The notes beneath the pieces are model-generated. The model did no database searches, was not told where the DNA came from, and saw only the letters and a list, made by a program, of their open reading frames with translations. Both the position numbers and the translations under genes were made by a program. 62,354 nucleotides of DNA, from contig DKEK01000002.1 of the NCBI GenBank assembly GCA_002452155.1, positions 1 through 62,354 of the forward strand, read 5' to 3'. This DNA comes from Candidatus Saccharibacteria bacterium UBA6824. Lineage in GTDB: Bacteria; Patescibacteriota; Saccharimonadia; Saccharimonadales; UBA10212. This document shows, piece by piece, positions 7,356 to 60,642 of this stretch. Numbering within the stretch: the stretch's first letter is position 1; each line of letters starts with the position of its first letter.

Positions 7356-7390
7356 TTTTCGCCGCTGCCCTTATTGATGCCCGGACCCAT

Positions 7391-7723
7391 TTAATCTTCT
7401 GATGCAAAACCAACCCTGATCGCATCAGTCTTAATCCCCTCTATTCTTTCGGCTGTAAGCCACTGAAAGATCTTTGGGACTGACTCTTCATACGGTGGGT
7501 CACACCCGGTTTGACTTAATATAAACTCACCTCGTCTGCCCGATCTTGAGAGAAAAAGCTGATAATCCAGATCCATAATGAAATTATCAGCAGCTTCCTC
7601 CCCGTATACTGCCCGTATGTAATCTGCGCCTAAAGGGCTGAATGAATACTCCGCTGGGCAGACAATTGGCGCTAAGATATCTGCCAGTCTCCTCTGATCC
7701 ATGCATAAATAATAACAGACCAA
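7391..7723 (-). CDS. Hypothetical protein (110 aa; start may be the internal Met at 7702)
   Basis: Open frame only; no motif recognised. First gene of the variable island. Confidence 0.4.
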   Translation of the reverse strand: MVCYYLCMDQRRLADILAPIVCPAEYSFSPLGADYIRAVYGEEAADNFIMDLDYQLFLSRSGRRGEFILSQTGCDPPYEESVPKIFQWLTAERIEGIKTDAIRVGFASED

Positions 7724-7798
7724 AGCCAGACTGTTTTACTACATCTGCTTCAGGCTCGCTCCGCATGCCCGAAATCCGGAGCGGAGTACAATGAGGCC

Positions 7799-8269
7799 AT
7801 GAAACCAGGCTTTTCAAAATATCTCTCACTTGAGCCCTATGAGTTTGATCAAGGCGACAATGGTTGGCGTGAGCTTGACGAGAAGGGAAAGTTTCTTGAG
7901 GCTGCGCAAATAATCGAACAGTATATAGAGGAAAATAAAGAAAAACTGGAGGAATACTACAAAGAAAACAGCGAGCTGGGTAGCGTTATGGTATTCCACG
8001 CTGGCCAGCTATATGCGACCGCTGGCCCTCAATATTATAAAAAAGCTATACCGTTCCTGAAAGATTCTTTTCGTGGCGAGGACGAAGGCTGGAATCTATA
8101 CGTAAAAGGGACAATAGCCTTCCTTACCCAAAACGCCGAGACACTGAACAAATGCCTAGACTCTTTAAGAGAGGATGACCCCAAGCACATTCGTGTAACA
8201 GTTCTGGACAGACTAAAGAGAGGTCTGGAACAGGGTATAACCTATCAGCGGGCATACGATAGTAAGTAA
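7799..8269 (+). CDS. Hypothetical helical (TPR-like?) protein, 156 aa
   Basis: ORF with GAGG 3 nt upstream of the ATG and TACAAT further upstream. Sequence is K/E-rich and looks helical. No catalytic motif recognised. Confidence 0.5.
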   Translation: MKPGFSKYLSLEPYEFDQGDNGWRELDEKGKFLEAAQIIEQYIEENKEKLEEYYKENSELGSVMVFHAGQLYATAGPQYYKKAIPFLKDSFRGEDEGWNLYVKGTIAFLTQNAETLNKCLDSLREDDPKHIRVTVLDRLKRGLEQGITYQRAYDSK

Positions 8270-8335
8270 TTCGGCTGGAGTCGTCAACCGCCTACCAAAT
8301 TCATCTGTTTTTCAGGAGGCCACAAAGTTCAAAAA

Positions 8336-9532
8336 CTAGGAGACTCCCGGGCTAGCTGCGACCAAGGGTATTAGCATCCTTAGCTCACCTATCCCTTCTT
8401 TTACATCCTTGGGGTCTATTGATTCCTTTGGGTGCCCAATTTTGTTGCGTGTTGATGTGACTTTTGGCTGCCCTTTTTCGTCAAGCTCGATCTTTAATTT
8501 TTTCTCCTTAAGCTTCTCTAAAATCCAGTCATTCAGTACTTTTTGCGGCTTACCTTTTTGCTCGTGTCCGTTGTCCCTGCAGATCACATTTTTCCCACAG
8601 CCTTCTTTTTGGCATACATAGGATCGACCAGTCATCGATAAACGAAGCTTTTCGTATAATTCTAGAAGATATGTCTGGCTAGGCGTGTTAAATATGAGGT
8701 GGTTGATTTCAGCATCAGATTTATATCCTAAAAGCGGGCTCTCTATTTTCTCTTCGACTTCTGTTGTGCCAGTTTCCTTGTTTCTTTTAATCTCATAAAT
8801 TTTCTGATCTCTTCCTAGCTCCACAAAATAAGGATCGTGGGTTGTGATTAGTATTTTCACACCATCTGCGATTAGCTTGGTCAGGGACTTGAATAATTCT
8901 TCCTTCCACTTAGGATGCAAGCAAAGTTCAGGTTCCTCTAAGATCAAAAGTGTGTTTATTGCTCCAGACTTTTTAACATTAGCCTCGGCGTAATAACGGA
9001 TGAGGGAGGCCAGAATCATCCTCTGGGCGCCAGTGCCAATTTTGCTTAGCTCAATTTCGTCGGTTTTAGTGGGGTATAAATCCTTGGCAAAAGGCTTGGC
9101 CAATTTTATGACTAAAGATTCATTTATGCTCTCGAGTTTTATGTCTAGTTCAGTGTCTTCTACGCCCGATTCTTTCAGAATTTTATTAACACCTTGGACG
9201 AGTTTAATCTTTTCACTTGCAAAATCAGTCCTAAGCTTATCCATCATAGAATTGTCGAAGATGGGCGACAGCAGTTCGGCAATAGCAACGTAAAAAGGAT
9301 CTGCTTTTGCGGAAATTTTTAACTCTTGGTCTGGCTGTATTCGGTCAGCTGGAATAAAAATTATACGGTAATCCGTGAGTTGCTTAATATCTCTTTGATT
9401 CTTGACGATGGAGTCGACAATACTGGTTTTACCGCTATTGTTTTCGCCTGCGAGAATCGTATAGTCGTCGAGTTCGATATCTATTGGGCTAGTTATACTG
9501 CTAGTGTCGTTCGGCTGAATTGTAATCTTCAT
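8336..9532 (-). CDS. ABC-type (AAA_15/21-like) ATPase with a C-terminal HEPN-like Rx4H module; PrrC-like architecture
   Basis: Start reassigned to the ATG at 9530-9532 (MKITIQ...), preceded by GGGAGGA. Walker A GENNSGKT (aa 29-36), signature-like GTGAQR (166-171), Walker B LLILEEPE (195-202), H-loop TTHD (230-233). The C-terminal ~135 aa carry a Cys/His cluster CQKEGCGKNVICRDNGH and RNKIGH (aa 362-367, nt 8432-8449). Hand counts of two 60-nt lines give 38-43% GC, against about 58% in an rpoB line. Confidence 0.7.
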   Translation of the reverse strand: MKITIQPNDTSSITSPIDIELDDYTILAGENNSGKTSIVDSIVKNQRDIKQLTDYRIIFIPADRIQPDQELKISAKADPFYVAIAELLSPIFDNSMMDKLRTDFASEKIKLVQGVNKILKESGVEDTELDIKLESINESLVIKLAKPFAKDLYPTKTDEIELSKIGTGAQRMILASLIRYYAEANVKKSGAINTLLILEEPELCLHPKWKEELFKSLTKLIADGVKILITTHDPYFVELGRDQKIYEIKRNKETGTTEVEEKIESPLLGYKSDAEINHLIFNTPSQTYLLELYEKLRLSMTGRSYVCQKEGCGKNVICRDNGHEQKGKPQKVLNDWILEKLKEKKLKIELDEKGQPKVTSTRNKIGHPKESIDPKDVKEGIGELRMLIPLVAASPGVS

Positions 9533-9615
9533 ACTCAAGTCCTCCCTCGAATTATACTCTTGGGAGGAAGAAGCGGACAGTTCTGCGCTACAATAAAACT
9601 TAACAGGAGGTGAGT

Positions 9616-9834
9616 ATGCCGAAGTGGCAATACATAGTGGAAGTAATAACGGCAAGTGAAAAGTGGGGCGAAAAAAGACAAGCCAAAGAGATTGAGAATT
9701 TTCAGCATAGACTAAACGAGATGGGACAAGAGGGGTGGGAGATGATCTCTTATGAGTCAGTGCCTCTTCTTGGAACATTCTCAAAGAATCTGAAAGGATA
9801 TGCCTACCTCTGTTTTTTCAAAAAGCAGCTCTAG
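9616..9834 (+). CDS. DUF4177-like small protein
   Basis: MPKWQYIVEV...LNEMGQEGWEMISYE matches the KWEYK...LN.LG.EGWELV pattern of DUF4177. AGGAGG lies 5 nt upstream of the ATG at 9616 (the ORF track starts at a GTG at 9610). Confidence 0.6.
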   Translation: MPKWQYIVEVITASEKWGEKRQAKEIENFQHRLNEMGQEGWEMISYESVPLLGTFSKNLKGYAYLCFFKKQL

Positions 9835-9920
9835 AAATCGTGGAGAGGGGCTTGTCCAGCCAGTAGTTTGACAGAACCACGGCTGGGGAAAGGGGGTAGG
9901 GTCCGTTTTGGAATTGAAAA

Positions 9921-9938
9921 GCGCCCCTTTCAGGGCGC
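9921..9938. terminator. Short GC hairpin between convergent genes (possible bidirectional terminator)
   Basis: GCGCCC-ctttca-GGGCGC, flanked by AAAA on the left. It lies between the DUF4177 stop (9834) and the stop of the 9980-10504 gene. Confidence 0.4.
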
Positions 9939-9979
9939 TGGGGCGGAAGTCCAACTCGCTCCCGCCCTTGAAGTTGCTG

Positions 9980-10504
9980 CTAGCCGCCGTATTCGGCCAC
10001 CAGTAGCCACTGCGGGTTCTCGAACGGGATGCCGTGCTGCTCGCAGAAGTTCTTGGCGGCAACCAGAGCACCATCGTCCAGTGTCGTTGCCGCCGGTTTC
10101 GGTTCAGCCCAGCTAGCGCCGCTGATCGTCGGCTTCACGGCCAGGATGATGCAGGGCTCGGAGGACTCGCCGGTCGATACGTCGATCACTCCGATCGGGC
10201 AGTTGTCGACGGTCTCCTGGCGGGCCTTCCAGAAGGCACTCATGGCCTCCTTGTTGGCCGAGTCTCCTTCGTACCACTCCTTCCATCCCTCGTTGCGGTC
10301 GGTGATGTGAGCGGACGGATCGGTGAGTCCGGCCAACGAAGTCACCCATTCTTCGAAATCGGGCTTTTCGCCGGCAGGATCGTCCTCATCGGTGTCTTCG
10401 TCGTCACCGCCCTCGCTTTCGACGACCGCCCAAGGCAAGTCGTCGAACTTCTCGTCGCTGAGGTGTATCCCGTATCCGAGATACGCCATAACCAAAATGC
10501 CCAT
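9980..10504 (-). CDS. Hypothetical acidic protein encoded by anomalously GC-rich DNA
   Basis: Start placed at the ATG at 10502-10504 (MGILVMAYLGYG...) with AAGGAG 5 nt upstream. Contains the acidic run ESEGGDDEDTDEDDPAGEKPDFEEW. Hand counts of two 60-nt lines give 62% and 67% GC. Long shadow ORFs on the opposite strand are typical of high-GC DNA. Confidence 0.6.
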   Translation of the reverse strand: MGILVMAYLGYGIHLSDEKFDDLPWAVVESEGGDDEDTDEDDPAGEKPDFEEWVTSLAGLTDPSAHITDRNEGWKEWYEGDSANKEAMSAFWKARQETVDNCPIGVIDVSTGESSEPCIILAVKPTISGASWAEPKPAATTLDDGALVAAKNFCEQHGIPFENPQWLLVAEYGG

Positions 10505-10584
10505 TGAGACTCCTTGGTCGAGGATACGATTAGCATACAATAATTAACCCCATAGCACAAGGGGGAAGGGGGAAGAGTCCGCTG

Positions 10585-11586
10585 GTGGCTTGGTATACTG
10601 GATTGATAGTGAGAGCAAGAACAGTCGTTAAAACATTTCTAACGGTTTGTCTGGTGGCCGTACCGGTGGTTGGCTTTTGGCAACGCAACGCTATTTATGA
10701 CGCGGTGCGCTTGCACGGCTACAACCCGCCGACGGCGGTAGTTGATTTGGCGACTCAGGATACTATGACCAGCCAAGGCCGCCACCTTTTTTACGTTAAC
10801 CATCCTCAGTTAGTCGGCGACAGCGCCACCTTCCGGGCCGACTGCACCATAACCGAGCAAACGATTGTGCTTGGCTGTTACCATCCCACCCAGCGGGGTA
10901 TCTTTGTCTATAGCGTCAGCGACCCCCGACTAGGCGGAGTGACTGAAGTAACGGCCGCCCACGAAATGCTGCACGCCGCCTACGATCGGCTAAGCTCTAG
11001 CGACAAAAAAGACGTCGACAAAATGCTGAACGATTATTACCAAAACGACCTGCACGACCAGCGCATCCTAGATACGATTGAGGCTTACAAAAAGACCGAG
11101 CCAAAAGACCTCGTAAACGAAATGCACTCGGTTTTTGGTACCGAAGTCGCCAACTTACCGGCTTCGCTGGAAGCTTATTACCAACGCTATTTTTCTAACC
11201 GCGCGACAGTCGTTGCCTTCTCGCAAAACTACGAGGGAGAGTTTACCAGCCGCAGCGCTAAAACCAGCCAATATGAGACCCAAATTAATTCTTTGAAGCA
11301 GAGGGTCCAATCAGAGGAAGCCAACCTGCGCAGCCAGTTAGCTAAAATTGAGGCCGATCGGGCCCGTTTGGATTCACTGCGCAGCTCCAACCAAATTGAG
11401 GCCTACAACGCCGGTGTCGCCAGTTATAACACCGAGATTGACGCTTACAACGCCGGCGTAGCCCAATATAAGAGCGACGTTGATAGGTATAACACCCTAG
11501 TCGAGCAATATAACGCCATTGCCGGTGAGCTCAAACAGCTATATGGCGCTATCGATACCCGCCTGCAAACGGAGTCTACCCGCTAA
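10585..11586 (+). CDS. Membrane-anchored putative zinc metalloprotease-like protein with a C-terminal YN-repeat coiled coil
   Basis: N-terminal hydrophobic helix (FLTVCLVAVPVVGFW), HExxH motif in TAAHEMLHAAYDRL, and a C-terminal repeat EAYNAGVASYNTEIDAYNAGVAQYKSDVDRYNTLVEQYNA. GTG start. Confidence 0.6.
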   Translation: MAWYTGLIVRARTVVKTFLTVCLVAVPVVGFWQRNAIYDAVRLHGYNPPTAVVDLATQDTMTSQGRHLFYVNHPQLVGDSATFRADCTITEQTIVLGCYHPTQRGIFVYSVSDPRLGGVTEVTAAHEMLHAAYDRLSSSDKKDVDKMLNDYYQNDLHDQRILDTIEAYKKTEPKDLVNEMHSVFGTEVANLPASLEAYYQRYFSNRATVVAFSQNYEGEFTSRSAKTSQYETQINSLKQRVQSEEANLRSQLAKIEADRARLDSLRSSNQIEAYNAGVASYNTEIDAYNAGVAQYKSDVDRYNTLVEQYNAIAGELKQLYGAIDTRLQTESTR

Positions 11587-14454
11587 CTAGTCGTTGCGGT
11601 GGCCGCCACCCTGGCCGCCGCTAGGGGTTCCACCGCCGGGTGTCACCGGCGCCGGTGCGCTGTAAACGATAGTCGCCGGGTCGCTGGTGGTATCATAGAG
11701 CACACTATCAATCACCTGGGCGGTCACGGTGTGGCTGCCGGCCGCTACCGTATAGCTGAAGCTGCGGCTGGCCGGTGAGTCCGTTAGGTCGTTATAGGTT
11801 TTAACCACCGCGCCGTCGACCGTAAAGTTGATAGTACCGGGAAATTGCGGGTAATTGCCGTCACTGAAGGCATGGCTGCCGGCAGAGGCGGTGGCCGTGA
11901 GGGTAAAAGTACCATCTTTATTATCGGTAGTGGTAAGAGTTATAGCCGGCTTGGCGTCGTCGCAGAGGTGGACGTCATCGGCCGTGCTGGTGCCGGCACT
12001 TGCTGCCCCGCTGCCAAAGAAGATATCGGCCGAGAACCGCTCGGCTGAGCTGTTGGCGCTGGTGGTCTGCTTGGCCAGGGGCGGCGTACAGTCGGTAGCC
12101 AGTTTATTACTGACTTTATCGGTATTCGTGCTGGTAGTAGGTGCATTTTTGGGTTTATACCATGATGGGAAGAGGTCGGTGCTGGGACTGGGCTCGACCG
12201 AACCGATACCGACGTGGCTGGTGACCACAAAAGCCGGCAGATGCTGGATGCCCGGCGGCTCTGTCCAGTTGACCGCCGGACCCGGGACGGTGTCCAGTGC
12301 GGCGTACATCATATTGCGCGTCAACGGGGCCGTCATGTATTCCATAAAGCCCGACAGGGCCCGCTCGCGGTTGTGGTAGCCGACCCAGCTGCCAACGGCG
12401 TACTGGGTGTTCCAGCCCATCATCAGACCGTCGAAACCATTGTTAGTGGTGCCGGTCTTGACGCCGCTGTTCCAGCCCTTATAGCGATGCCATTTGTAAA
12501 ACCCGGCCGGCAGGTAGCTGGCGTTCGGGTCGGAAGCCATGTTGTTGACAATGTAGGCTGTCTCGGCCTTGATAACTTGCTGGGGCTTGGGCTGCTTCCA
12601 CTCGTAAATGGTCTTATTGGCGGCGTCGTGGATTTTGAGGATATAGGTTTGAGGGATAGCTTGGCCCATGCGCCCGAGGGAGGCAAAGCCGTTAACATGT
12701 TGGTCTAGGTGAAAAAAGGCGCCGTCGCCAATGGCCGCCGCGCCATAACACTGGGTTTTTTGGGTCAGCGCCGTGTCGCCGTAGCAGTTGTAGGCACCCG
12801 GGGCGTTCATTAGGCTGTCGGCTAGATTAATCGTCTTGTCGACGCCGACAATCAGCATAGCCTTAACGGCCGGGATGTTGCGCGAGCCGCCCAGGGCATA
12901 ACGCAGGCTCAGTGGGCCGGGGTTGCGAAAATCATAATCCTGCAGGCAGTTACTGTTGCCTTTGGGCGGCGGCGAACCTTTGATAGTGCAGGGGTAGCCC
13001 GGTATCGGGCCCTGCTGGTCATAAAGTACCGAGCCGGCGCCGGCGGTGGTAGTATTTTCAATCAGCGAGGCGTAGTCATAGGGCTTGAAGCTGGAGCCGG
13101 GGGCGATTTTAACTTCATGGGCATAATTGAGCTGGCCGTGGTCGGGATTAGTGAAATCAACACCGCCAACTAGGGCCACCATTTGGCCGGTTTTGACGTC
13201 TTCCGTCACCAGAGCCTGCTCGTCGGCGCCGTAGCGCCGGACGTTAGACTGGTTGTCGGCCACAATTTTTTCGGCTTTATTTTGCAAATTCATATCAAGC
13301 GTGGTGATAACTTTCCAGCCGCCAATTTTAGTCGAGCCGCCACCGCCGGTTGGCACGAACTTATTGCGCAGTTCATCCTTGGCCGCCAGCACAAAATAAG
13401 GTGATTTAATACCTGCATATTTGGTCGTTTGGGGCTGGATCTCGGCCAGCACATCAACCTTTTTGGCGGCTTCTGATTGGGCTTTGGTGATTTTGTGCGA
13501 TTGCTCGAGTACATCCAAAATGTAATGCTGGCGGCCAGTCAGTGCCTGTTTGTCAAAATCGGGGCTGTAGGGCGAGTAAATCGCCGGGGATTTAGGAATA
13601 GAGGCCAAGAAAGCGGCCTCGGCCAGTGTCAAATCCTTAACCGGCTTGCGAAAATAGTCGGCCGTGGCAGTTTGGGCGCCGTAGTCAACGCTGCCGTAAG
13701 GCGCGGCGTTTAGGTAGCCGGTTAGAATCTCGTCCTTGGTGTATGTCCGCTCCAACTCGACGGCTAAGATGATTTCTTTAATTTTGCGGGCGATGCTGCG
13801 CTGGTTAGTCCAGTTTTCGTTGATCTTGACCAGCTGCTGGGTAATCGTCGAACCGCCCTGGGTACCATTTCTTTTGAAGACATCATTAAGAGCCGCCCGG
13901 CCAATGCCCTTAACGTCAAAGCCGCGGTGTTTGTAAAAATCACGGTCTTCTATGGATACGGTGGCGTCTTTGAGGTATTGGGACATGTCACTGCTGGCTA
14001 TCGGCACCCTTTTTATGGCGTCGTAATCCTGCCACAGCAACGTCTGGCCGGTGCGGTCGTAATAACTAATACTGCCGCCCAGTTTGCTGCCGGAAATATC
14101 TTTAATATTCGGCAAATCTTTGCGGAAAAAGGCAAAAACGCCAAGTGTCAGTATAAAAATGGCGACAATCGCCAGACCCAGAATTTTAAGGCCCATGATG
14201 GCGCCGTCGCGGCTAAGCCAATACTCGGCCCAATTGCGTGGATCCAGGTGCCACAAGACCCTTTTGAACCTGGATTTAGGCAAACCGCTCAGGCGGTGGA
14301 CTTTGCGCAGTGATTTGCCTTCTTTCATCGCTGTCCAGCGTTCGCCCAAGCTGCGATTGACCTTAAGCACCCGACCGCTGCGTGTTGTGACGTACTTGCC
14401 GGGACTGCGTCGCGCACGGCCACGGCTATACTTGCCCAAATCTTTTTTAGCCAT
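11587..14454 (-). CDS. Class A penicillin-binding protein (bifunctional glycosyltransferase/transpeptidase, PBP1A-like) with a long C-terminal extension
   Basis: 955 aa. GT51 motifs (SIEDRDFYKHRGFD, GGSTITQQLVK), transpeptidase SxxK (PGSSFKP) and KTGT (VKTGTT). The C-terminal ~200 aa is an Ig-like/G-rich tail. Its stop codon abuts the stop of the convergent 10585-11586 gene with 0 nt between them. Confidence 0.92.
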   Translation of the reverse strand: MAKKDLGKYSRGRARRSPGKYVTTRSGRVLKVNRSLGERWTAMKEGKSLRKVHRLSGLPKSRFKRVLWHLDPRNWAEYWLSRDGAIMGLKILGLAIVAIFILTLGVFAFFRKDLPNIKDISGSKLGGSISYYDRTGQTLLWQDYDAIKRVPIASSDMSQYLKDATVSIEDRDFYKHRGFDVKGIGRAALNDVFKRNGTQGGSTITQQLVKINENWTNQRSIARKIKEIILAVELERTYTKDEILTGYLNAAPYGSVDYGAQTATADYFRKPVKDLTLAEAAFLASIPKSPAIYSPYSPDFDKQALTGRQHYILDVLEQSHKITKAQSEAAKKVDVLAEIQPQTTKYAGIKSPYFVLAAKDELRNKFVPTGGGGSTKIGGWKVITTLDMNLQNKAEKIVADNQSNVRRYGADEQALVTEDVKTGQMVALVGGVDFTNPDHGQLNYAHEVKIAPGSSFKPYDYASLIENTTTAGAGSVLYDQQGPIPGYPCTIKGSPPPKGNSNCLQDYDFRNPGPLSLRYALGGSRNIPAVKAMLIVGVDKTINLADSLMNAPGAYNCYGDTALTQKTQCYGAAAIGDGAFFHLDQHVNGFASLGRMGQAIPQTYILKIHDAANKTIYEWKQPKPQQVIKAETAYIVNNMASDPNASYLPAGFYKWHRYKGWNSGVKTGTTNNGFDGLMMGWNTQYAVGSWVGYHNRERALSGFMEYMTAPLTRNMMYAALDTVPGPAVNWTEPPGIQHLPAFVVTSHVGIGSVEPSPSTDLFPSWYKPKNAPTTSTNTDKVSNKLATDCTPPLAKQTTSANSSAERFSADIFFGSGAASAGTSTADDVHLCDDAKPAITLTTTDNKDGTFTLTATASAGSHAFSDGNYPQFPGTINFTVDGAVVKTYNDLTDSPASRSFSYTVAAGSHTVTAQVIDSVLYDTTSDPATIVYSAPAPVTPGGGTPSGGQGGGHRND

Positions 14455-40273: not shown

Positions 40274-40618
40274 ATGGCAGAAGCTAAGAAAACAACCAAG
40301 ACAGAGCCGGAGATAAAGCAGCGGATTCGCATTCGCTTAAAGGCTTATGATCATAAAGTTATTGACCAATCTGCCAAGCAGATTGTTGAAACGGCTCTAC
40401 GAACTGGTGCCAACATTGCCGGGCCCATACCGCTGCCTACCAGAAAAAGCACTTACACCGTCGTCAAGAGCCCTCACGTCTATAAAAAGGGCCGCGAGCA
40501 GTTCGAAATGCGCGTCCACAAACGACTTATAGATATCAGCGACCCGACCCCCAAGACCATAGATTCGCTCATGAATCTCAGTCTTCCGGCTGGCTGTGAC
40601 GCCGAAATCAAGATGTAA
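40274..40618 (+). CDS. rpsJ: 30S ribosomal protein S10
   Basis: [24 protein letters not shown]...[24 protein letters not shown]. Confidence 0.96.
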
Positions 40619-40902
40619 TGAAAGATAAGATTGAACAGTCCGCTAATCAACAGCCGGATTATCCTGAATTAGAAAGAGATAGTCGCCTTCGTCTTATTTT
40701 GGAAAATCCTTTAGAGTATGACCGCCAAATGTCTGAGCAAATGAGAGCTCTTGAGAGCAAAAGTAAATTAAGTCGATGGCTTATCTTGAGAAAGAATGTT
40801 GAGTTACGAGATTATATCGAGTATAGAGAAGCGCAACAAAGTGTACGAGACGCACAGGAGAGTGCGTATAAAAATGAAGGGAGAGATATAGTTCTCTTCT
40901 AA
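40618..40902 (+). CDS. Orphan ORF (94 aa) translationally coupled to rpsJ
   Basis: ATG overlaps the rpsJ stop (TAATG). AT-rich, predicted helical and charged. No recognised motif. Confidence 0.45.
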
Positions 40903-60105: not shown

Positions 60106-60642
60106 ATGAAGCGCAGAATACAACTATTCGCCTCAATTAACGCAGTCGAGGCAGTTAATAGAGCGCTTAGCAAACACACATTTCACTTAAGAAAACCTCG
60201 TCCCCAGGTCTTAGACCACGAGGATACCGATTCCGAAAAACTTATCGATATTACGGCGGGGGCTCACGATATGCTAATTACAGCAACTACAGTTTTTCCG
60301 TTTGTACTTTTTCCAGACACGATTAACATCGATAGACAGAAACTAACAATTATTCATAGATCGTTTTTCCGCGTAGCAGACGTAATAAGTGTCCAGATTG
60401 ATGATATCCAGAATGTAGAGTCAAGTGTCGGTCCATTTTTTGGATCAATTCGATTAACTTCAAGATACTTTATTAACAATTTTCAATCTATTAAATTCTT
60501 ACAAAGAGGTGATGTTGTAAAAATTCAAAGATTACTTCAGGGCTACATGATAGCCCACCATAGAAAGATTGACTGCTCTACTATCGACAAGGCTCAATTA
60601 ATTATTTTATTGAATGATCTTGGCCAAGGATCGTCAAATTAA
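60106..60642 (+). CDS. Hypothetical protein, 178 aa, AT-rich; possible bacterial PH (bPH_2/YdbT-like) fold
   Basis: Open frame with its own upstream TTGTAA-N18-(TGg)TACAAT promoter at 59985-60014. The segment INIDRQKLTIIHRSFFRVADVISVQIDDIQNVESSVGPFFGSIRLTS resembles the bPH_2 pattern. Hand counts of two 60-nt lines give 42% and 30% GC. Confidence 0.5.
   Translation: MKRRIQLFASINAVEAVNRALSKHTFHLRKPRPQVLDHEDTDSEKLIDITAGAHDMLITATTVFPFVLFPDTINIDRQKLTIIHRSFFRVADVISVQIDDIQNVESSVGPFFGSIRLTSRYFINNFQSIKFLQRGDVVKIQRLLQGYMIAHHRKIDCSTIDKAQLIILLNDLGQGSSN

Follow-up and report, generated by a model that had tools for sequence, protein, structure and literature searches.

Here we describe a gene of the bacterium Candidatus Saccharibacteria bacterium UBA6824 that joins an ABC-type ATPase to a small helical domain resembling the HEPN ribonucleases (RNases). 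It lies at 8336-9532 on the reverse strand of contig DKEK01000002.1 (assembly GCA_002452155.1), of which the 62,354 nucleotides analysed are referred to as the window. The gene has 398 codons and a stop codon, and its extent is supported by the open reading frame (ORF), the translation and 67 full-length homologues. The reading frame opens with an ATG at 9532, and a Shine-Dalgarno sequence (GGGAGG; 9541-9546, reverse strand) was read 8 nt 5' of it. The N-termini of the homologues coincide in the alignment with the MKITI... start of the window protein. A 482-aa ORF initiated at TTG, which appears in a mechanical listing, was rejected as the gene because all homologues start at the MKITI position. 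A preliminary description made from the sequence alone had presented the gene as an orphan, PrrC-like candidate for a single-gene abortive-infection RNase. The ORF that it delimited is confirmed here, and its motifs GENNSGKT, GTGAQR, LLILEEPE, TTHD and RNKIGH all fall at the residues and nucleotides that it gave.

The N-terminal 262 residues (8747-9532, reverse strand) are an intact, unusually short ABC ATPase of the OLD/AriA/PtuA lineage, as identified by Pfam, PADLOC and Foldseek. Over residues 1-240 the protein matches AAA_15 (4e-23, 83 bits) and AAA_21 (1e-15, 59 bits), both above the Pfam cut-offs. AAA_13 (Pfam PF13166), which we take to be the family of PrrC and RloC, gives no Pfam match in the window protein at E <= 1, and all 66 aligned homologues have the same pattern. 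The best PADLOC models are Old (6e-30), AriA (3e-24), NsnB, PD-T4-4_A, GajA (3e-16) and PtuA (e-12), and they cover the ATPase part only. NCBIfam adds weak matches to PtuA and MADS3, and tblastn finds a match to P2 old. A full-length AlphaFold model built on the 66 homologues (pLDDT, or predicted local distance difference test, 82.7; predicted template modelling score, pTM, 0.82) has PtuA, Rad50, SMC heads and the retron Eco8 ATPases as its top Foldseek matches in the PDB. This search returned ATPase matches only.

The catalytic motifs of the ATPase are complete, all on the reverse strand and all invariant at their key positions in 66 sequences. These are the Walker A motif GENNSGKT (9425-9448; aa 29-36, with G29, N31, G34 and K35 invariant), the ABC signature-like GTGAQR (9020-9037; aa 166-171, with G166, G168 and R171), the Walker B and D-loop segment LLILEEPE (8927-8950; aa 195-202, with E199, E200, P201 and E202) and the H-loop TTHD (8834-8845; aa 230-233, with all four residues T230, T231, H232 and D233). 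L205-H206-P207 are likewise invariant. With these motifs and the AAA_15/AAA_21 matches, the compact AAA_21-type NTPase of the preliminary description is well founded. The acidic position of Walker B is an invariant Glu199 (EEPE) in this compact family, and Asp (DEPE), as is usual for ABC ATPases, in the longer relatives described below.

The remaining 136 residues (aa 263-398; 8339-8746, reverse strand) are, judging from profile comparisons and models, a divergent HEPN-class helical domain. The assignment draws on AlphaFold2 (AF2) models, on the Pfam matches of homologues and on hhalign. The AF2 domain model (pLDDT 88.3) has helices at residues 273-281, 286-301, 329-342, 357-366 and 374-393. 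A variable insert (302-356) after the second helix contains a cluster of cysteines and the helix 329-342. HEPN domains consist of two helical hairpins, core helices 2 and 3 being separated by a variable insert; their Rx4-6H motif ends helix 3 and runs into the loop before helix 4, a polar residue (N, D or H) follows the arginine, and an acidic residue is often present upstream (PMC3710099). The order of helices and the location of the motif in the model of the window domain agree with that layout.

The predicted catalytic motif is RNKIGH (R362...H367; 8432-8449, reverse strand), which lies at the end of core helix 3 (model helix 357-366) and extends into the next loop. By chance alone, a protein of such length is expected to contain an R-x4-H string. 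Here it counts as significant because R362 and H367 are both invariant in 66 of 66 divergent homologues, in an alignment whose mean column identity is 38%, and 26% over the C-termini. Residue 363 is H in 47 homologues and N in 13, so that H or N is found in 60 of the 66. In a broader domain alignment of 50 sequences the motif histidine is invariant and the arginine nearly so. A second conserved motif, SDAEINH (8699-8719, reverse strand), occupies helix 1 of the domain and has the family consensus S-x-S-E-I-N-Y; E275 is conserved in 64/66 sequences, N277 in 61/66 and, further on, E291 in 53/66. R362 and H367 probably form the predicted RNase site of the domain. The preliminary description had seen about 135 helical residues with the motif where HEPN domains carry it, and had singled out R362 and H367 for a survey of conservation; both the placement and the conservation are borne out.

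The connection to curated HEPN families is made through the homologues. A full-length Pfam scan finds HEPN_RiboL-PSP in 16/66 members and HEPN_MAE_28990 in 3/66, and a scan of C-termini only finds them in 10/36 and 5/36, respectively. Two homologues, P0041 and P0007, pass the gathering threshold of HEPN_RiboL-PSP (PF18735, 28.4 bits), scoring 32.1 bits (E 1e-7) and 29.6 bits (E 8e-7). Their matches span positions 97-185 of the 191 in that profile, which is its motif-bearing half, and they also match HEPN_MAE_28990 (PF18737) at 4e-5. When the window's subclade was compared by hhalign with the HEPN-matching subclade, the two aligned over 107 columns with their motifs in register (probability 99.8%, E 3.6e-28). 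In PADLOC and PHROGs no model spans the C-terminal domain, both covering the ATPase part only, and a search for homologues with a 113-aa C-terminal fragment yielded no candidates. Weak matches among PDB sequences (TIPE, cullin, secretagogin, RASSF5 and 'Dandelion-hepn' at E = 2.2) are regarded as chance hits.

The insert between helices 2 and 3 of the domain carries a Cys/His cluster, C307-x4-C312-x5-C318-x4-H323 (8564-8614, reverse strand). In the AF2 domain model this region forms short strands (pLDDT 71-79), and the cluster is probably a small zinc knuckle. The middle spacing is five residues and not the six first reported. P0001, P0002 and P0004 have cysteine clusters in the corresponding position, and P0047-P0050 a CxxC; other members lack them. 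The cluster was therefore rejected as a family-defining zinc site, since it is confined to the window's subclade.

The full-length homologues are 354-409 aa long, with E-values down to 1e-140, and the best is 58% identical to the window protein. Counted with one genome per species, this compact form is found almost only in Patescibacteria, or candidate phyla radiation (CPR), together with one Woesearchaeota archaeon. The CPR groups represented are Saccharibacteria, Paceibacterota, Minisyncoccia and Nomura-, Staskawicz-, Azam- and Harrisonbacteria. An exhaustive run with a profile of the C-terminal domain recovered 791 representative proteins (clusters at 50% identity) at E <= 1e-3. Of the best 150, 50 are longer proteins (420-645 aa); all 50 are AAA_21/AAA_15 ATPases, and they constitute a long form. 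Its C-terminal consensus is the same as that of the compact form (SxxEINYxAF ... YHNELYGYL ... IRNxIHHPEN). Full-length genes for the long form are present on three plasmids, an IncFIB plasmid of Klebsiella quasipneumoniae, pLH1 of L. helveticus and a plasmid of Weissella. Each is solitary, is flanked by insertion sequence (IS) elements and is annotated merely as 'AAA family ATPase' or 'ATP-binding protein'. The combination of ATPase and C-terminal domain is also carried by five IMG/VR viral contigs. The fusions on the plasmids of Klebsiella and lactobacilli and on the viral contigs measure 420-560 aa. The preliminary description held that a stand-alone ATPase-HEPN effector in a CPR-like episymbiont would be an undescribed variant; this was too narrow, as the architecture exists in a longer form in ordinary bacteria, on plasmids and in viral contigs.

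The K. quasipneumoniae plasmid, pA2508-emrE (L145), shows the long form in a particular setting. The gene (83459-84922; 487 aa; WP_064155835.1) stands between two ISNCY transposase genes, with a TIR-domain gene 2 kb off and a GNAT/DUF1778 toxin-antitoxin (TA) pair nearby. This stretch resembles a small cargo of defence genes.

The surroundings of the family were surveyed at 84 unique loci; smaller denominators below refer to the loci with enough flanking sequence. DNA methylases are near many of the genes (N6_N4 type at 17 loci, some fused to LexA/S24, and C5 type at 6). Type ISP/Eco57I genes occur at 2 loci, GmrSD at 2, tyrosine integrases at 6 and serine recombinases at 5 (together 11). Single loci have EcoO109I with a methylase, an EcoRI methylase with GmrSD-HNH, and an N6_Mtase-S fusion. 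At 11 of 59 assessable loci (~19%) the family gene has DUF2130 immediately upstream in the same orientation, the gap being -29 to +28 nt, and these loci fall in several subclades, including that of the window (L068). DUF2130 has been classed within the PD-(D/E)XK superfamily (PMC3424549). DUF2779 is directly downstream at 5 of 58 assessable loci. Neither is found at 24 of 30 well-flanked loci, and nowhere among the 84 does the layout hsdM-hsdS-gene-hsdR appear. The gene is solitary, accessory and horizontally mobile, in company typical of defence genes. The frequency of methylases, restriction genes and recombinases fits a defence role, and the stand-alone character claimed for the window gene extends to most homologous loci.

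The DUF2779 protein is ~495 aa long, with a weak RNase_H_2 match, and adjoins the family gene downstream in L011, L015, L032, L033 and L112 and upstream in L082. In some loci the DUF2779, DUF2130 and ATPase-HEPN genes form a three-gene operon, and an SF1 helicase of 1400-1600 aa is upstream in two loci. The gene at L116:825-2216 (reverse strand) and other members of neighbour cluster 0 encode a LexA DNA-binding domain, Peptidase_S24 and an N6_N4 DNA methyltransferase in one protein, an unusual architecture of SOS repressor and methylase.

In the window the gene belongs to a 3.2-kb lineage-specific insertion between ClpC and a 333-aa gene, orf333 (7356-10584, unstranded), which contains ORFs of 110, 156, 398 (the target), 74 (DUF4177) and 186 aa. 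The low-GC (guanine plus cytosine) part of the insertion is ~7390-9800 in the GC profile. By its ClpC the window organism falls in Saccharimonadales. The syntenic interval was compared in three related Saccharimonadales genomes, L148, L149 and L150, whose ClpC proteins are 96, 91 and 87% identical. Neither the target nor the four small ORFs around it had a tblastn match in the intervals from ClpC to orf333 or the penicillin-binding protein (PBP) gene in these relatives. Because of this the target gene is placed inside a lineage-specific insertion, and it is a single-gene accessory insertion. In L150 the orf333 orthologue directly follows ClpC. The interval from ClpC to the 333-aa gene is a variable hotspot: the relatives other than L150 hold differing sets of small unannotated ORFs, and RadA lies beside the PBP gene. 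A mobile-element origin of the insertion was considered and rejected, as no convincing flanking repeats and no integrase were found and the nearest tRNA gene is ~10 kb off. The exact 398-aa protein is present on ten public contigs, and the context is the same in the four that were read.

The target gene is monocistronic. A terminator-like hairpin with a T-run (9920-9939, reverse strand; 8 pairs including 6 GC) terminates the 186-aa gene upstream, so the transcript of that gene is separate from that of the target. The target diverges from the 74-aa DUF4177 gene and converges with the 156-aa gene downstream. BLAST searches with the neighbour proteins of homologues, methylases included, found no restriction-modification (R-M) gene, DUF2130, DUF2779 or recombinase in the 62-kb window, and the proteins next to the target have no such Pfam domains. 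None of the small ORFs around the target recurs at any of the 84 loci, and they were rejected as conserved partners. The GC content of the gene is 0.413 against a mean of 0.513 (standard deviation 0.042) over 70 window ORFs (z = -2.4). Monocistronic transcription, an island-like position and the lack of an R-M partner were all claimed in the preliminary description and are upheld. Its figure for the GC gap, about 15 points, holds only against the immediate flanks, the gap to the window ORFs being 10 points. The insertion is also not the only island-like region in the window, since two short ORFs elsewhere, at 60106-60642 and 40618-40902, are lower in GC (0.37-0.39) than the target. These may be other small foreign insertions.

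We propose, with a little better than an even chance of being right, that the gene encodes a self-contained, nucleotide-gated toxic RNase acting against phages or other invading DNA. The proposal draws on conserved motifs, structural models and analogy with characterized systems. If its heads, like ABC heads in general, come together and part as ATP is bound and hydrolysed, and if it shares the general need of HEPN RNases for two Rx4H motifs face to face, the ATPase would control whether two C-terminal domains pair or become exposed. An infection cue sensed by the ATPase would switch the oligomer, and two C-terminal domains would then form the active RNase. The RNase is predicted to be metal-independent, as HEPN endoribonucleases are, which leave 2',3'-cyclic phosphate ends. 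It would cut a host RNA, most probably tRNA or another RNA of translation. This would halt translation and abort the infection. For roughly one relative in five, the upstream DUF2130 nuclease of the PD-(D/E)XK class probably adds a second effector or sensor. Proven defence systems offer precedents in which ABC ATPases are coupled to Toprim, HNH, NERD, PIN and HEPN effectors, and tRNA is cut by Old and PARIS.

A number of results weigh against this proposal. The window protein itself has no significant match to any HEPN profile in Pfam, and 0 of the 50 long-form proteins match one at E <= 0.01. A fold comparison of the C-terminal model, which the preliminary description had suggested, did not reveal a HEPN relative: Foldseek against the PDB and BFVD gave best E-values of ~0.4-1, with Csm6 at E = 8, although the method copes poorly with small helical bundles that carry inserts. 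The same comparison gave no significant match to any other fold. Profile searches of PDB sequences with three alignments (A2, the broad A5 and A6 of the RHDIAH subclade) found no HEPN structure. No immunity or antitoxin partner is identifiable. That tRNA is the target is the most likely guess by analogy. Many of the family loci sit between housekeeping genes, e.g. SecDF, TyrRS and ribosomal proteins, and the evidence from neighbourhoods is one of association only.

The weakness of the fold searches leaves room for a different role, in which the protein is the sensor or regulator ATPase of a multi-gene nuclease system with DUF2130 upstream and DUF2779 downstream. The C-terminus would then bind a partner or ligand, and the window copy would be an effector-less orphan, maybe inert. 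The recurrence of DUF2130 in several subclades (11/59) and of DUF2779 (5/58) accords with such a system, as does the PD-(D/E)XK class of DUF2130 (PMC3424549), and Septu, PARIS and HEC-02 are proven pairs of an ATPase and a separate nuclease. However, the fused protein is maintained on its own, because neither partner is present at 24/30 well-flanked loci or beside any of the three plasmid copies. A mere docking domain would hardly account for R and H both being invariant and for the polar residue after R that is typical of HEPN, and decay of the window copy is contradicted by the intact, identical sequence on ten public contigs (four read). We regard this role as unlikely. A toxic RNase could also serve a selfish, TA-like addiction module that stabilises the island, with an adjacent small ORF (the 156-aa, the 74-aa DUF4177 or the 110-aa one) as antidote and no role against phages. 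HEPN domains are common as TA toxins (PMC3710099), the target shares its 3.2-kb insertion with four small unannotated ORFs, and plasmid copies adjoin TA genes and IS elements. Against addiction, no small neighbour recurs beside any of the 84 family members, and neither flanking repeats nor an integrase mark a mobile unit. An RNA antitoxin, as in a type III TA system, was also rejected, since Rfam gave no hit and relevant tandem repeats were lacking. The chance of an addiction module is small, and clearly below that of a sensor role.

Two further explanations are more improbable still. The near confinement of the compact form to CPR and DPANN genomes, and the position of some copies between core genes (SecDF, TyrRS, ribosomal proteins), would suit a housekeeping ATPase of Patescibacteria, engaged in RNA processing or associated with the ribosome and without a role in conflict. 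Against such a function stand a patchy distribution and absence from the syntenic site of three close relatives. The deviant GC of the target, the association with methylases and recombinases, and the copies on plasmids and viral contigs also speak against it. Least credible of all is a true PrrC or RloC orthologue, that is, an anticodon nuclease held silent by a type I R-M system, which has lost its R-M partner. The size is near that of PrrC (~400 aa), the order of an ABC NTPase followed by a nuclease domain with R and H is the same, and the relative L001 has DUF2130 on one side and an N6_Mtase+Methylase_S gene on the other. Yet the window protein and all 66 homologues match AAA_15/AAA_21 strongly and AAA_13 not at all at E <= 1, and the HEPN signal goes to RiboL-PSP and MAE_28990. 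Neither the window nor any of the 84 loci has the gene embedded in hsdMSR, and the model has no coiled-coil or zinc-hook insert of the RloC type.

The comparison with PrrC and RloC is nevertheless instructive for the proposed toxic RNase. Both are single polypeptides, PrrC being similar in size, that act as latent suicide tRNases against phages, cleaving the anticodon loop of a tRNA once a phage has triggered them. In both, an N-terminal ABC-type NTPase is combined with a C-terminal HEPN-class RNase that has essential R and H residues (PMC3710099). The ATPase in the window is of the AAA_15/AAA_21 (OLD/AriA) type, unlike AAA_13, and the nuclease domain of its family is nearest to RiboL-PSP and MAE_28990; the likeness is at the level of the HEPN class only. 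PrrC is embedded in and silenced by type Ic hsdMSR, whereas the window gene is not. RloC has ~800 aa with a Rad50-like coiled coil and a zinc hook, and the window protein has 398 aa with a compact head in the model. Because it differs from them in ATPase family, R-M embedding and coiled coil, the window protein appears to be a functional analogue of PrrC and not a member of the PrrC/RloC family. The label 'PrrC-like' given to it earlier is thus apt for the architecture, an ABC NTPase with a HEPN-like C-terminus that has an invariant Rx4H and a link to curated HEPN families, but not as a statement of family membership.

By profile the nearest ATPase relatives are P2 Old, Gabija GajA and retron Eco8, which likewise unite a sensor ATPase and a fused nuclease in a single gene. 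P2 Old is reported to cleave tRNA and abort infection, with a tetramer-to-dimer opening of the nuclease. In these systems the nuclease is a metal-dependent Toprim domain, unlike the all-helical HEPN-like Rx4H domain of the window protein, which is predicted to be metal-independent; the window ATPase is also much shorter (262 aa). Pfam finds no Toprim, DUF4435 or HNH domain in the window protein or its neighbours, and the C-terminus is all-helical. PARIS (AriA/AriB), Septu (PtuA/PtuB) and HEC-02 (ABC ATPase with NERD) belong to the same ATPase lineage, PtuA being the top structural match, and follow a logic in which an ATPase sensor releases a nuclease. The NERD partner of HEC-02 parallels the DUF2130 partner of ~19% of relatives. 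In these three systems the nuclease is separate and both genes are required, whereas the putative nuclease of the window protein is fused and most of its family's loci are without partners.

On the side of the HEPN domain, HEPN_RiboL-PSP and HEPN_MAE_28990 are the sole curated families reached, and they share R-[N/H]-x3-H with the window family. The N-terminal SxSEINY helix and the fusion to an ATPase are not described for them in the 2013 HEPN survey, in which OLD-type ATPase fusions are not mentioned (PMC3710099). ApeA, HepS, HEC-08 and AbiF/AbiD resemble the window gene in being stand-alone, in having an Rx4-6H domain and in their abortive-infection logic, often with tRNA cleavage. They differ in their N-terminal sensor domains, and none is reported with an OLD-type ABC ATPase. 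Across the accessible literature to 2026, a scope that leaves the 2020 ABC ATPase classification outside, HEPN as a partner of ABC ATPases is recorded only for PrrC and RloC.

Taken at its broadest, and more tentatively than for the window gene, at somewhat less than an even chance, the family may be a large unnamed class of single-gene anti-phage systems that couple an OLD-type ABC ATPase to a divergent HEPN RNase. Its miniaturised form of 350-400 aa would be almost restricted to CPR and DPANN, and some members would recruit a DUF2130 nuclease and DUF2779 into an operon that targets both RNA and DNA. If so, this would be a third ABC-HEPN lineage beside PrrC and RloC, and would provide ultra-small episymbionts with a first abortive-infection effector that is concrete and testable. 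An ABC ATPase with a nuclease is among the commonest designs of bacterial immunity (Old, Gabija, PARIS, Septu, Lamassu, PrrC, RloC), and from this family it would follow that a HEPN RNase was captured by the OLD/AriA branch as well, in one small polypeptide. Such a polypeptide should be easy to express, mutate and solve, and the long-form relatives on Klebsiella and lactic-acid-bacteria plasmids are testable with available phages. The immune repertoires of Saccharibacteria and other CPR are poorly known, and the gene provides a specific candidate effector. Suicide of an infected episymbiont would also affect the host-bound population.

Some individual loci deserve mention. The conserved 333-aa gene that borders the insertion in the window (10585-11586, forward strand) has a weak AAA_13 match (2e-4, residues 173-310), and its orthologues adjoin ClpC in related genomes. 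In Candidatus Azambacteria (L034:7848-8527) two overlapping ORFs of 124 and 110 aa divide the family gene between them, and it is probably a pseudogene. The chromosome of the Woesearchaeota (DPANN) archaeon (L027) has a compact member at 7956-9113 and, ~1.5 kb downstream at 10646-12130, a related 494-aa ATPase that lacks the C-terminal domain. At L005 (GC 0.26) ORFs read with translation table 11 fragment genes that the source calls whole, e.g. TyrRS (401 aa), which suggests that this lineage reads UGA as sense; the family gene there is intact under table 11.

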